Source: a virus. From it: DNA of 64,000 nt. Numbering within the stretch: position 1 is the first letter of the stretch; every line of letters begins with the position of its first letter. The position numbers were made by a program, and so were the translations under genes. The notes under the pieces are model-generated. The model did not search any database. It was not told the origin of the DNA and worked only from the letters and a program-made list of their open reading frames with translations. Below are positions 3,795 to 37,235 of this stretch, in pieces. Location of the stretch: positions 32,270 through 96,269 of the IMG/VR virus record IMGVR_UViG_3300022555_000027; one strand, given 5' to 3'.

Positions 3795-3820
3795 TTTGAA
3801 ACCGGTTTCAGGGGGCTATC

Positions 3821-28540: not shown

Positions 28541-29849
28541 CCGAATCTCGCGCGAAAAACCCGGCCCTTCAGGGCGGGGATGGATAGCACGTTCGGCAAC
28601 GCCGAAAACGCTTGACAGTTAGACGCAGGCGTCATATATCTAAGCCATGTTGAGAGCCACCCGTATCCGCATCTACCCGACCGACAAGCAAGCCAAAAAC
28701 TTGGCCGTCCAGTTCGGGTGTGCGAGGTGGGCATGGAACAACGCACTTGCCGAGACCGGGGAACTCTACCGCGCCACTGGCAAGGGTCTTAACTATCACG
28801 CGATGGCAATCCGACTGCCGAAGCTTAAGCAAGAGTTTGAATGGCTTAAGGATGCTGACTCACAGGCGTTGCAGCAATCATTGCAAAACCTAGCCCGTGC
28901 GTTCGATAACTTCTTTGCCAAGCGTGGCCGTTATCCTCGGTTAAAGTCCAAACATGGGCGCCAGTCAATCCAGTATCCGCAGCGTGTCAAGATTAACGGG
29001 TCGCGTATCTATCTGCCGAAGGTCGGATGGGTCAAGTGTGTTGTTCATCGTCACATCTCTAGTAAGTTCAAGACTGTAACTGTGAGCCGTAACGCTTGCG
29101 GACAGTTCTACGCCTCAATCCTGACCGATGACGGCGAAGATATGCCGACTGTCGTGACAGAGGGTAAAGCTATCGGTATCGACGCTGGTCTAACGCACCT
29201 TGCTGTGACCAGTGACGGATCGAAGTACGAGAACCCCCGCCATATCAGGAAATCCGCAAGGAACCTGAAGCGTAAGCAGCAAGCCCTTAGTCGGAAGAAA
29301 AAAGGATCGAAGGGCCGGGATAAAGCTCGGCAGAAAGTAGCACGCGTACATGAGAGGGTGGCGTGCGCTCGGAAAGACTACCTTCATAAGCTGTCTCGAC
29401 GGATCGTGAACGAAAACCAAGCAATCGCCGTCGAAGACTTGAATGTGAAGGGAATGATGAAAAACCACTGCTTGGCGAAAGCTATCAGCGACGTGGGATG
29501 GAATATGCTAGTGAACTTCCTGGAATACAAAGCGGCGCGTGCTGGCAAGGCGTTTGTCAAGTGTGGTCGCTGGTATCCGAGTTCTAAGGCTTGCTCAGAG
29601 TGTGGTTCTATTTGCGACAAGATGCCGTTAGATGTTCGATCATGGACTTGCGCCCATTGTGGCGCGCACCATGATCGAGACATTAACGCGGCTCGAAATA
29701 TCCGTGACGAAGGTCTACGGATATTGGCCGGAGGGACTCCGGCTACTGCTAGTGGAGGGGACGTTAGTCGCCAGAGAAGCCGCAAGACTTCTGGACGCGC
29801 GGTCCCCAGTGAAGCTAGAAGCTTGGCCCTTTAGGGCCGAGTAGTTCAC
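28541..29849 (+). mobile_element. TnpB-only IS200/IS605-family element (IS1341-type)
   Basis: Subterminal hairpins (CCGGCCCTTCAGGGCGGG; GGCCCTTTAGGGCC); inserted after TTAT, ends TTCAC; no target duplication, no tnpA. Confidence 0.9.
28647..29834 (+). CDS. tnpB: RNA-guided endonuclease TnpB
   Basis: RIYPT HTH, RuvC GIDAG, VEDL, CSECG..CAHCG zinc finger, DRDINAARNI. Confidence 0.95.
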   Translation: MLRATRIRIYPTDKQAKNLAVQFGCARWAWNNALAETGELYRATGKGLNYHAMAIRLPKLKQEFEWLKDADSQALQQSLQNLARAFDNFFAKRGRYPRLKSKHGRQSIQYPQRVKINGSRIYLPKVGWVKCVVHRHISSKFKTVTVSRNACGQFYASILTDDGEDMPTVVTEGKAIGIDAGLTHLAVTSDGSKYENPRHIRKSARNLKRKQQALSRKKKGSKGRDKARQKVARVHERVACARKDYLHKLSRRIVNENQAIAVEDLNVKGMMKNHCLAKAISDVGWNMLVNFLEYKAARAGKAFVKCGRWYPSSKACSECGSICDKMPLDVRSWTCAHCGAHHDRDINAARNIRDEGLRILAGGTPATASGGDVSRQRSRKTSGRAVPSEARSLAL

Positions 29850-31433: not shown

Positions 31434-31996
31434 GATACTGTCCTCGTTGAAGGGTCAACCCCATGATTGAAATTGACAAAGGGCACCCCACGCCGTGCCT
31501 TTGAACAGGTCACGGTCCCTGTCAAAACAACAGGGTGGGAAGCCTTAAATTTCCCGCCGAATTACCGTCTATTTGGAGTATGGAAAACGAAAACGAGGCC
31601 GAACCCCCCAGTGGCCGATGGGACACACCCCCACCCCCCGGTCGATCCCGGCCTCGAACAGGGCCGGTTTCCACCGCTTTCGGTGGGACGATGGCCTCGG
31701 TTTGCATCGTGTGACGACCCGACACCTTCTGACCGCCGATGGCACGGACGGCCGATTAGAGCCGCCCGACGCATCCGAGCTTAAAGTGTCTAAAATTGTA
31801 TCTATTTGTCGGAGTGCGGCGTCTTGACCGGGATTTGGTCAAGGTGACGACCCGACACATGACAGGAAAGGCGATCACCGATCACGTCACTAAGGCGCGA
31901 CAGAGTGAAACCGGTTTCCCTGAAAAGGTGGTCGAGACGACCCGACACCTGAAATCACCAAAGCCCCTTGCCTTGACCGGGCAAGGGAATGAAACC

Positions 31997-33239: not shown

Positions 33240-34328
33240 CTATGCCGCACGCCGTTGGTCAAGACTGGCTATATAGCGTTGCCTGTTTTCCCAATAGGTA
33301 CGAAGGGCAACAGGAACACCACGCCAGAGCGTGTCAACCTCTCTGACCGCTACCGCTACCGGAACACTTGCCCCGTTGGGAAGCGGCACAGCCTTGTAAT
33401 ACTGAGTTGCCCCGATCTTGAACCGGGCAACGGTAAAGCCGGCCGGTTCAAGGATTTGCTGTTTGATATGCGTCACGTCACCTGACAGGCTGTGGCGTTG
33501 CCAACCAAGACGTTGACACATTGCCTCGGCGTCAATTCCACCCTCAGAGAACAGAGCATCAATGATCTGGCGCTTTTTGCCGCTATACAAAGCGGCGTTG
33601 AAACCGGTTTCAGGTTGGACCGGAGCTACAGAGGCAGCAGACTGCCTTGACGTGACCTGTCTTGCGCTTTCGTCACAGAACGCTAACAACAGGTCGATCC
33701 AGTTAATCACCTTTTCAGCGTCGAAGGTGCCGCTATGAACACGAACCTCGAAGGTGCCAAGTGCGCGTGGTGCGTTGTGACGAATAGCAAGCGGCGTCAC
33801 ATTAAGCTTGCGATACCGGTCTTGACCAAACACAAGCGCAAGCCCTTCGATGCAGTCCGCAGTGTTCAAGAGGTAACGGGCACGGCCATCAAGGCGTGAC
33901 GGTCGGCAAAAACTACCGTTTCGACGGTCATGGGTGACAAGGCCATCAATAACACTTTCATGATCGGACCATCGTTCGATGATCCTTTTGAGTATAGGCA
34001 GGTCAAGATGTGCAACTCCCAGGTGTACGTGAAACCCTGTCGTTGTGTTTACCCCGACGCCGCTATCAATGACGTTGCCCAGGGCAAGCCTGATTTCCTG
34101 TTGCCAGTTTTCGTTCGTCTTGAGAACACGAGACACTAACTCGAACGCATGACCGTGACCTGACACGCTACTGTCAGATACGATTTTCCAAGTTGGTTGC
34201 GTCGAACCGGTGATGCTATCAACGCTACAAGGCACCCCATTAAAGGTGATCATTTCAGCCAACGTCGAATGGCTGGCCGACGTTGCTACGCCTTCAAGCT
34301 CTATTCCAATCGTCTTGATGATCGACAT
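33240..34328 (-). CDS. Putative amidoligase (COOH-NH2 ligase) with C-terminal DUF3489-like winged helix
   Basis: GIELE, W....DSS, ELVS..L, TGFHVH, RY.KLN, T.EVR.H.GT; then KKRQIIDAL...GWQRHSL. Confidence 0.85.
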   Translation of the reverse strand: MSIIKTIGIELEGVATSASHSTLAEMITFNGVPCSVDSITGSTQPTWKIVSDSSVSGHGHAFELVSRVLKTNENWQQEIRLALGNVIDSGVGVNTTTGFHVHLGVAHLDLPILKRIIERWSDHESVIDGLVTHDRRNGSFCRPSRLDGRARYLLNTADCIEGLALVFGQDRYRKLNVTPLAIRHNAPRALGTFEVRVHSGTFDAEKVINWIDLLLAFCDESARQVTSRQSAASVAPVQPETGFNAALYSGKKRQIIDALFSEGGIDAEAMCQRLGWQRHSLSGDVTHIKQQILEPAGFTVARFKIGATQYYKAVPLPNGASVPVAVAVREVDTLWRGVPVALRTYWENRQRYIASLDQRRAA

Positions 34329-34470
34329 TATTGAACCGTCACCCGTAAGGGCAACGCCCCTATTGCAATCGACACAGTGTCAACGAAACCCCATAAGGGG
34401 CAACGTCACAGTGTCACCAAGTCACCCTTGAACGGATGATCAAATGGCCAAATCACCGGTCCCACTTTAA

Positions 34471-34826
34471 TCACCCTCCGCAAGCGCGTCGGGTAGTCAC
34501 CCTCCGCAAGCGTCGGGTCCTCACCCTCCGCTTGCACGTCGGGTAATCACCCTCCGCTTGCGCGTCGGGTCGTGAAACCGGTTTCAATTTCCTTCTCATT
34601 GCCCCTATTGCGTCACCCGTAACCAATGACACCAGCCAACCACCGTAAGCTATGAGAAACCGTATGAAGGGTTTCAAGCGTACCAGTCTATAGGGTGATG
34701 TCACCTGTTAGGGCATGACGCAAAGCGCAACGGAAACCGCCACGCCGTGTGGTCACCCTCCGCTTGCGCGTCGGGTAATCACACTCCGCAAGCGTCGTGT
34801 GGTCACCCTCCGCTTGCGCGTCGGGT
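34471..34826 (-). repeat. Seven 24-26 bp hairpin repeats in two clusters (4+3), candidate structured ncRNA
   Basis: Minus-strand unit ACCC-GA-CGC-loop-GCG-GA-GGGT-GA at 34471, 34497, 34521, 34547, 34753, 34779, 34803. Confidence 0.85.
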
Positions 34827-36089
34827 AAGGGCCAAATTGTTTGTTTTAACCAAAGACACCACCTGTATGTGACAGCCTATACAGCGTCACGGTGGTGGTG
34901 TCTCACTTGACAACGCTACCTGTCAGGATGTCCTACTCGTTGCCCCGTCGTTGCCCTTGGTTCATGTACGCTTATTATACAGCATTCATGACCAGTCTGG
35001 TTTTTCTCAAGTGGCCTTTCCCAGATGGCCGTTCCAGATTGGCTGGACCCTAATTCATTGGTTTTCCTCAGTCATTGGCAAATTGACGTTGGATCACCTG
35101 ATAAAAAACCGTGCGTTTGGTGTTTCAAGGCTTCAAGATCGCGTGTATCTGACACGTCAATTTGCCCTTGCGCCTTACCCCTCCCGCTTGCCTTGACCCT
35201 CGGCACCCCCTTTCCTCTGTCTTATTGATCACACTGTCACTGTGCTCGGTTTCACTATGAAGGTCGAGGGGTTTGATAGGGGCAACGGCACCAAGGTGCG
35301 ACGCTTTGGGCAAATAGCCCTGTGATCACAACAGCTTAGGGTGCGGCAACAAAAAATTTGTGTAGCCTTCGTTTTGGCGTGCCACTGCCTGTTGAAACGG
35401 GTTTCAGTGGTCGGATAGGGGCAACTCGGGCAAATCGGGTGTGACAGCCATCACAGTAGCGGCGTTGCCCAGGTGACATTGCCTTGCCTCTGTGTCACCC
35501 GCGCCTTGCCCCACAGCCTGTCACCCGTCACGCCTTGGCCTTACCTCCCTGTCAGGGTAGCGGGTGACGTTGCCCCGCGCCTTGCCCCGCGCCTTGCCCC
35601 GGATTTCAGGTCAGAGCACTCGTGATCTGAGGTTTTGCCGCACTCTGACCGACCGGTATGACGCAGCCAGGGTGACGAGACAACAGTCCTATGGCCGATG
35701 GCCCTGCTTTGCCGGGCTTTTCAGGAGCATCGCTGGTATTGCGTCGTCACATTGCCTCTGGCGATGGGGGCGTGTCGCCACATTCTGACCGCCATCGCGT
35801 GTTTCGGGTGACACTACCTTGCCGATGCGCCAGGCGGTCGCGGCCGGCGGCATCCGGGGTTCAGCGCCTTTCCGATCTCAGAAAATCCTGAAACGGTTCA
35901 GGATACGCCCACGCTCCTTCCCTCTCCAATTTATAGCATTTCTGGGAAATTTGACGTAAGGTTTCGCGCTAGTGGAGAGAAAGTGTCAGGATTTAACGAA
36001 ACATATACACGCCGATAGCAGGGGGCTAAAAATTTCCCCGGGGGTAGATTTGGTGGGGTTGAGGAGGCTGCTATTTCACACACTTATTT

Positions 36090-36190
36090 GGGTTGGGTGG
36101 GGGTAGGGGGCTGGTTGGTGACACCGGGTTGGGGGGTAGGGGGCTGGTTGGTTACACCGGGTTGGGGGTAGGGGACCAATAGGTTACACC
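36090..36190 (+). repeat. G-rich tandem repeat, about 33-bp period, three copies
   Basis: GGGTTGGG..GGTAGGGG..GGT(G/T)ACACC units. Confidence 0.85.
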
Positions 36191-36359
36191 GTAGCCACCG
36201 GGTAGGCAGCTACGATGCAACCGGTTTCAAATCATGCGCTACCGTAGACCGCACCGGTGAACACTTGGATGGTATCTGGGGAAGTTCCCCACGAGGACGG
36301 CGGGAGGGCTTGACTGTATCCGCGTATGGGGTTATGAGAAGGCAACGAAGGAGGTTTGG

Positions 36360-37007
36360 ATGAAAGTCGTTGGGGTAATCGCTCAGAAGGGTGGGGCCGG
36401 AAAAACCACCGTTGCTGTTCACCTCGCTGTTGCCGCTGCTCAAAAAGGTAAAGGGAAGGGCAGGGGGCGGGCGCCGCCCCTCAGAGTGCTTCTCATCGAT
36501 ACTGACGAACAGGGTTCTGCGCGGAAGTGGTGGAACCGCCGGTCGGCGACGAACGTGGACCTTGCTGCGACCCGCGCGCTCGGTCAGACGCTCAAGGATG
36601 CCGAAGCCTATGATCTGGTGGTCGTCGATACGGCGCCACGAGCTGTGGCTGAAACCCTTGCGACAATCAAGCTGTGTGACTTCGTGATTTGCCCCTGCCG
36701 TACAGGAAGGTTGGACCTTGATGCACTTGAGGACACCGCGAAAATCGTCAAGATGACCACCACGCCTGCTGCCGTGGTTTTCAACGCCGTGCCCACCATC
36801 GGGAAGGCAAAACTGGAAGAGGCCAAGGCCGAAGTCGCGTGTCTCGGGCTGGACATCGCGCCGGTCGAGATCGCTCACCGGGTCGCCTATACCCACGCCC
36901 TCAATGACGGGCTGGCGGTCACTGAGTTTGAGCCCTATGGTCGTGCATCGACGGAAATGACCACCCTCTGGAGGTTCCTTGAGGAGCGGCTATGTCTCAA
37001 ATCATGA
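36360..37007 (+). CDS. parA: ParA-family ATPase (short, type Ib/ParF-like)
   Basis: KGGAGKTT, IDTDEQGS, VVDTAP; possible TTGACT-N17-TATGAG promoter upstream. Confidence 0.92.
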   Translation: MKVVGVIAQKGGAGKTTVAVHLAVAAAQKGKGKGRGRAPPLRVLLIDTDEQGSARKWWNRRSATNVDLAATRALGQTLKDAEAYDLVVVDTAPRAVAETLATIKLCDFVICPCRTGRLDLDALEDTAKIVKMTTTPAAVVFNAVPTIGKAKLEEAKAEVACLGLDIAPVEIAHRVAYTHALNDGLAVTEFEPYGRASTEMTTLWRFLEERLCLKS

Positions 37008-37201
37008 CGAAGAGGGCAGGGGCTGCTGAAGCTCCTACAAAGCGTCTGCCCGACCGGGTTCAGATGACGATTTACCTCTCTCCCGAAGCACACAAGCAAC
37101 TCACCATCCTGGCAGCGGAAAAAGGTGTGAAGGCGCAGGTGTTGCTTCGGGAGGGCGTGAACCGGATGTTTGCGGAGAACGGGTTGCCCCGCATCGCATA
37201 A
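36992..37201 (+). CDS. Ribbon-helix-helix partner of ParA (ParG-like)
   Basis: VQMTIYLSPEAHKQL...A.E.G......LL.E; overlaps the parA stop; GAGGAG RBS. Confidence 0.8.
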   Translation: MSQIMTKRAGAAEAPTKRLPDRVQMTIYLSPEAHKQLTILAAEKGVKAQVLLREGVNRMFAENGLPRIA

Positions 37202-37223
37202 AAAACCCCTCCCGGGGAGGGGT
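37201..37223 (-). terminator. Terminator for the leftward gene block
   Basis: Minus strand ACCCCTC-hairpin-GAGGGGT-TTTTT. Confidence 0.7.
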
Positions 37224-37235
37224 GGGGCCATAACC

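Follow-up and report, generated by a model that had tools for sequence, protein, structure and literature searches.

The CsrB/RsmY/RsmZ sponge RNAs are built from many short hairpin modules in a non-coding stretch, each with a GGA in an exposed loop, and by analogy with them the multivalency of a hairpin array suggests titration of a dimeric binder. The lambda boxB/nut elements are small GC hairpins with GNRA-type loops, which lie in the early leader and are read by a phage arginine-rich antiterminator. The repeat units of ToxI are ~34-45 nt long (about 36). Type III antitoxin arrays of the ToxI kind consist of head-to-tail structured RNA repeats, and phages carry mimics of them (PMC8860590). 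Racr and other solitary repeat units are small hairpin RNAs of phages, often close to a promoter, whose mode of action is mimicry; Racr copies a full CRISPR repeat and usually occurs singly (PMC10651486). The STAB-SD 5' mRNA stabiliser is a single, accessible Shine-Dalgarno look-alike in a leader without a start codon (PMC4113751). Among DNA sites, parH of TP228 and the centromeres of other ParA/ribbon-helix-helix (RHH) systems comprise repeated boxes, sometimes in two clusters, in a replicon with ParA and an RHH protein, and a two-cluster arrangement of sites is usual for plasmid centromeres and iterons (PMC3130281).

Analysis of the window, a stretch of 64,000 nucleotides at the end of a virus record of 96,269 bp from an uncultured phage, revealed seven hairpin units on the minus strand. 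These units are a real, selected and pair-preserving repeat in a lineage-specific accessory region, and they match no known family. As in the sponge RNAs, many short hairpins with a GGA lie in a non-coding stretch. Unlike in the sponge RNAs, the GGA spans the last G of the inner stem and the GA of the internal loop, and the array is without an Rfam match and, in the consensus scan, without a defined promoter or terminator. A CsrA/RsmA-like nature of the GGAGG in each unit, which the original prediction had proposed from the letters of the DNA, thus fails on the defining feature, the GGA being unexposed in stem and internal loop. In comparison with ToxI, the period is only 24-26 nt, no toxin endoribonuclease gene follows the array and the array is split in two; the analogy with antitoxin mimics fails on the length of the unit and on the neighbouring gene, which encodes an Amidoligase_2 enzyme. 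The unit is also shorter than the repeat copied by Racr, and it is multi-copy. In boxB/nut the loop is recognised and conserved and there is one element per operon, whereas here the loop varies, the internal loop is conserved and seven copies are present. In contrast to the single accessible STAB-SD, each of the seven copies is predicted to be sequestered in a hairpin. The boxes of known ParA/RHH centromeres are short and adjoin the operon; the array lies 1.5 kb off, the promoter has a 33-bp repeat distinct from the array, and the changes in the units keep hairpin pairing.

Organization and variation of the hairpin units

The seven units follow the pattern ACCC-GA-CGC-loop-GCG-GA-GGGT on the minus strand between positions 34473 and 34826, and comprise six exact units and one variant. 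They are arranged as two blocks of three and four units, ~180 nt apart, with a period of 24-26 nt within each block. Sub-array A (34755-34828, minus strand) contains u1 (34805-34826), u2 (34781-34800), which is an ACAC/GTGT variant, and u3 (34755-34776), with start-to-start spacings of 26 and 24 nt. Sub-array B (34471-34572, minus strand) contains u4 (34549-34570), u5 (34523-34544), which carries a C>T change, u6 (34499-34518) and u7 (34473-34494). The pattern search of the minus strand returned all units except u2 as exact-unit matches, six against 0.00 expected in shuffles. A three-unit block of 76 nt is present in duplicate at 89% identity. A possible decayed eighth unit (34731-34750, minus strand), in phase after u3 and starting with ACAC-GG-CG, was recognised by eye only and was missed by a covariance model built from the units.

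The covariance model found only the seven units in the 64-kb window (E 5e-13 to 6e-5), the next match having an E value of 0.11, and the exact-unit pattern is confined to one locus of the 96,269-bp genome. Pattern search and covariance model together recover all seven of the tandem-GA hairpin units that the original prediction had placed on the minus strand; what had been described as a single run of seven is in fact divided into the two blocks. Generic GA-loop hairpins outside the array are weakly above expectation in the genome (23 versus ~15.5 expected from shuffles). Dispersed hairpins of the REP/BIME or MITE-like type were ruled out, as the units occur at one locus only in the genome. The direct repeat of 11 bp found on either side of the array region, at 34443 and 34827, was judged to be at chance level.

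Comparison of the units revealed departures from the consensus at three of 140 core positions (20 core positions in each of seven units), the other 137 being unchanged. Two of the departures are in u2, where C>A and G>T occur at partner positions and form a double compensatory change that keeps the stem. The third, C>T in u5, corresponds to a G-U pair in the minus strand and to C-A in the plus strand. Both kinds of change had been pointed out originally and were confirmed in the units at 34781-34800 and 34523, respectively; the pairs of the stems are preserved throughout. When three core changes were placed at random in a simulation, every pair and every GA loop stayed intact in 0.3% of trials (P = 0.003), the covariation evidence consisting of three changes among paralogous units of one genome.

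Four units have a GCAA loop, one has GCTT and two have TT. Folding of the latter two produces a CUUG tetraloop closed by G-C, and across the units the loop varies in sequence and by 2 nt in length, giving units of 20 and 22 nt. The GA/GA internal loop is invariant in all seven units, consistent with the contrast between varying loops and fixed GA/GA drawn in the earlier description, and the trailing GA is invariant as well. The two-base spacers after the trailing GA occur in four forms over the seven units (CC, TT, CC, TT, GG, CT, TT). Since spacers and loop have diverged while the cores are kept, the cores are under selection and are not recent copies. The double change in u2 keeps its own stem and adds a mismatch to any pairing with u1 or u3, and hence favours folding within the unit. 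Judged from the sequence of the seven units, selection on the cores respects pairing.

These results bear on the view that a hairpin-prone unit without function has been multiplied into a minisatellite by slippage and block duplication. The block duplication described above is clear, and the array is found at one locus in one lineage. The covariance-model search advised in the original prediction found no array in five relatives identified by their portal protein, which gave single weak matches only (E 0.06-0.34). However, the spacers are fully diverged while the cores are almost unchanged and the three changes keep pairing, and palindrome-templated repair would have erased the GA/GA mismatch. 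A functionless minisatellite is hence regarded as improbable.

Predicted folding and the favoured reading

Each unit alone folds identically in prediction, with an outer stem of four pairs, a 2x2 GA/GA loop, an inner stem of two or three pairs and the tetraloop. The predicted folding energies are -5.6 to -12.5 kcal/mol for minus-strand RNA, -2.7 to -8.8 kcal/mol for plus-strand RNA and -1.9 to -5.8 kcal/mol for single-stranded DNA. The minus strand is favoured, its RNA hairpins being 3-5 kcal/mol more stable than those of the plus strand. Tandem sheared G-A is a stable RNA motif, and GNRA and CUUG are extra-stable classes of RNA tetraloop. The GCAA and CUUG loops of the units belong to these classes, as the claim of stable loops in the earlier description implied.

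Any 5' arm can pair with any 3' arm, so that neighbouring units compete, a point that the original prediction had overlooked. In minimum-energy folds the blocks form long nested hairpins, and in the equilibrium fold of the 657-nt leader the own-pair probability is 0.00-0.61 per unit because units pair with their neighbours, separate hairpins being the minority. When pairing is limited to 30 nt, which would mimic the folding of each unit during transcription, the own-pair probability is 0.6-1.0 and separate hairpins dominate. The units u5 and u6 are especially prone to pair with each other because their AA and UU loop bases are complementary.

The best reading of these data, held with somewhat less than even confidence, is that the units are hairpins that act as a single strand, most likely as RNA in the leader of the amidoligase operon. 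The seven selected hairpins, each composed of stem, GA-GA internal loop, stem and tetraloop, would act as a minus-sense single strand, and the array would sit in a long untranslated leader of the leftward amidoligase operon. The arms, GA/GA and trailing GA are exact while loop and spacer drift, which argues for a sequence-specific reader of the hairpin body, and the presence of seven copies argues for multivalent binding. The array would probably be a multivalent landing platform for a sequence-specific hairpin-binding factor, and the bound factor would set the stability, read-through or translation of the amidoligase operon in cis. We infer transcription, a binding factor and cis action of the array from its form and position. 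An RNA function is likely on sequence grounds. No RNA-binding protein candidate was identified for the units, and against the favoured reading stand the competing pairings in the leader, the lack of a convincing promoter or terminator around the array, and the exact conservation of both arms, which binding to duplex DNA would explain equally well. Should the array be a protein-binding RNA, the few multivalent RNAs known from phages would be joined by a new module without relatives, in which a tandem G-A loop separates two stems and a tetraloop caps the inner one, and its seven identical baits would be a simple handle for fishing out the partner.

The GGAGG of the units allows a different RNA-level explanation. 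Each unit ends with GGAGG-G-TGA, and the strong starts of the phage read GGAGG-n-TGA-n-ATG, a match that extends up to the ATG. GGAGG is present in all seven units without a following ATG, as in STAB-SD leaders, and the array may thus be pictured as a leader of STAB-SD-like ribosome-binding-site look-alikes that docks 30S for protection from decay or for standby. The predicted duplex with a generic 16S 3' tail has an energy of -11 to -13 kcal/mol versus -19.8 kcal/mol for a perfect site. In every unit, however, this GGAGG is predicted to be paired, as it belongs to the 3' arm of the hairpin, whose folding energy is -8 to -12 kcal/mol; moreover, conservation of the 5' arm and of the GA/GA loop would be left unexplained by docking of ribosomes. 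Ribosome docking is accordingly given a low probability. A private ribosome-site tag complementary to the units, as an anti-leader would have, was sought and none was found.

The gene-free stretch, the amidoligase side and the ParA cassette

The array is part of a ~2-kb stretch (34329-36359) without a convincing gene. Ten ORFs of 50-81 aa are found at 34.2-36.1 kb and none of them matches any phage protein family; the region is non-coding, as had been stated when it was first described. The Rfam check proposed at that time was run on positions 33500-36000 at E values up to 10 and gave no family match, only two noise matches.

Downstream of the array, the first gene (33240-34328, minus strand) is that of an Amidoligase_2 enzyme, which has a DUF3489-like domain at its C terminus (residues ~248-322). 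The start of the gene lies 145 nt after u7, which agrees with the earlier placement of the array upstream of this gene, and the 145-nt gap contains no ORF. Leftward after the amidoligase gene there is an AIG2/gamma-glutamyl-cyclotransferase-like gene, followed by more small genes. A PDB sequence search for the amidoligase gave no significant match, and its single-sequence AlphaFold model has a pLDDT of 33. One further protein in the database, P0242, combines amidoligase and DUF3489-like domain in the same way, with 40% identity in the tail. Two longer proteins contain the motif of the DUF3489-like tail in 5-10 repeats.

The minus strand is G-rich from the amidoligase gene to ~35250 and the plus strand is G-rich from ~35950. 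The G-richness of the minus strand matches the sense strand of the leftward genes, and this strand pattern fits divergent transcription from the middle of the gap. A TATAAT hexamer is present on the minus strand (34974-34979), as the original prediction had reported; it is without a matching -35, and the promoter scan, which left it uncalled on the minus strand, did call this AT-rich hexamer in the plus-strand direction. The consensus scan found no convincing promoter or terminator bracketing the array, and a hunt for promoter motifs gave no robust phage-specific promoter consensus. A long hairpin lies between the TATAAT and sub-array A (34854-34903, minus strand); its arms are perfect over 10 nt, a GTGAC/GTCAC pair is nested in it, and a short U-rich run comes after it. 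This hairpin is a candidate attenuator or terminator. The position of the array, 145 nt before the amidoligase start and downstream of the long hairpin and the AT-rich hexamer, suggests a leader acting in cis.

On the other side of the gene-free stretch lies a partition cassette composed of a ParA ATPase gene (36360-37007, plus strand) and the gene of a 69-aa RHH protein (36992-37201, plus strand), which overlaps the ParA gene and is followed by a hairpin terminator; cassette and repeats together occupy 36098-37228. Three 33-bp direct repeats (36098-36196, plus strand) are located 165-260 bp upstream of parA, and the array is located 1534-1887 bp upstream. Two homologous alphaproteobacterial plasmid cassettes (~41% ParA identity) have repeat clusters within ~150 bp of parA and directly after the cassette. 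The 33-bp repeats are a better candidate than the hairpin array for a partition site or operator. The complete ParA/RHH cassette suggests that the phage can persist as a plasmid, and the array marks a 2-kb regulatory hub where control of the accessory operon and partition meet in this seemingly plasmid-like phage.

The main rival to the hairpin reading is that a dimeric protein recognises the units as sites in duplex DNA, be they operators, iterons or a partition site. As expected of sites for a dimer, the units are imperfect palindromes in which the arms are conserved while centre and spacer are free; they also come in two clusters, and the hub in which the array lies contains several repeat families beside the ParA/RHH cassette. 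The directly downstream gene has the DUF3489-like domain, which is likely nucleic-acid-binding and whose fusion recurs. The cassette 1.5 kb to the right and this domain, neither of which the original prediction had mentioned, both sustain the DNA-site reading. Candidates for the binding protein are the amidoligase, through its DUF3489-like domain of probable winged-helix type (as autoregulation), and the RHH protein of the ParA cassette. However, units of 20 and 22 nt differ by 2 bp in the distance between their arms, none of the seven has lost the GA/GA asymmetry, and the double change of u2 and the G-T-compatible change of u5 are left without explanation in a duplex site. The par cassette also has its own 33-bp repeat in three copies nearby, and the array is badly placed as a centromere at 1.5-1.9 kb from parA. 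With respect to an iteron origin, no Rep-like family was found among the neighbouring genes examined, there is no DnaA box within 4 kb of the array, and an AT-rich unwinding stretch is lacking, the lowest 100-bp GC content (0.42) being away from the array. Duplex sites are possible, with a probability that we place well below even. If the array is of this kind, it would show how closely a duplex site can imitate RNA covariation within one genome.

Other repeats were observed in and around the gene-free stretch. A copy of a 14-bp palindrome of the TGAAAC-CG-GTTTCA family is located at 34573-34586, 2 nt upstream (minus sense) of u4. This palindrome occurs 31 times in the window, against 0.17 expected, and 40 times in the genome; the copies include those at 3797, 8674, 23050, 28065, 33599, 34573 and 36216, and three are in the 2-kb gene-free stretch. 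Most copies, whichever the strand, precede a start codon by 8-25 nt and recall the start-associated sequences or stoperators of mycobacteriophages. An eight-codon mini-ORF (36234-36260) without an obvious ribosome site begins 4 nt after the palindrome copy upstream of parA. GTGAC-R-TTGCC words number 12 in the window versus 2.7 expected and are clustered at 33.5-35.8 kb, among others at 35379-35819, and a 12-bp tandem repeat in 2.7 copies is present in the gene-free stretch at 35570-35601. A word of 13-17 nt, GACGACCCGACAC, is found in three copies on the plus strand (31713-31952), within a second gene-free stretch (~560 bp) inside the leftward operon. It has ACCCGAC in common with the 5' arm of the hairpin, but on the opposite strand.

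Decoy readings and relatives of the phage

Titration of a host protein in trans is a stronger, putative version of the hairpin reading, which the data allow. As an early-transcribed multivalent decoy RNA, the seven GA-loop hairpins would soak up a host RNA-binding component, and the targets may include a defence-system nuclease, a processing enzyme or the anti-Shine-Dalgarno tail of 30S. This version is considered unlikely. If it is true, the array would represent a new class of RNA, without sequence relatives, by which a phage counters defence or takes over its host.

A narrower proposal is that the array is a decoy for an RNA-binding protein of host defence, either as a Racr-like mimic of a CRISPR repeat or as a pseudo-ToxI. 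Tandem hairpin repeats in an accessory region of a phage fit the theme of decoys (PMC10651486; PMC8860590). On the other hand, the unit of 20-22 nt and the period of 24-26 nt are too short for a CRISPR repeat or a ToxI-type repeat, and the gene downstream is an amidoligase and not an endoribonuclease. Searching 185,579 species genomes revealed at least 120 loci that match the unit pattern, and none among the matches listed holds a CRISPR-like array. The scan for likeness to CRISPR repeats used the exact pattern, by which diverged repeats would be missed, and gave isolated matches among those listed. The analogy with Cas decoys made in the original prediction is weakened by the unit length, the neighbouring gene and the lack of a CRISPR-like array among the matches listed, and a defence decoy of this kind is assigned very little probability.

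Across IMG/VR, species genomes and JGI metagenomes, the unit pattern gave chance singles among the matches listed. Two multi-copy loci among the species-genome matches listed were rejected, one as a coding 57-nt (19-codon) repeat in an actinomycete and the other as a duplicated segment. A blastn search of the phage collection found no related DNA, and searches of IMG/VR with the ParA, amidoligase and portal proteins recovered only another piece of the same phage. A portal profile identified ten phages of 80-110 kb at 36-47% identity, none of which has ParA or the amidoligase. An identical ParA is found on 18 contigs; one ParA relative has 65% identity and a portal relative 83%. No array is present upstream in L336, an amidoligase relative.

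A contig of 13.6 kb from a different sample (L196) joins the end of the record to its start (G000) at 99.9% identity with ~170 bp of overlap, and this bridging contig indicates that the genome is circular or circularly permuted. Two IS605-type TnpB genes are present in the window, at 28647-29834 and 44656-45888. The former has its nearest DNA relatives on plasmids of alphaproteobacteria (Skermanella, Methylovirgula) and cyanobacterial neighbours in the atlas.
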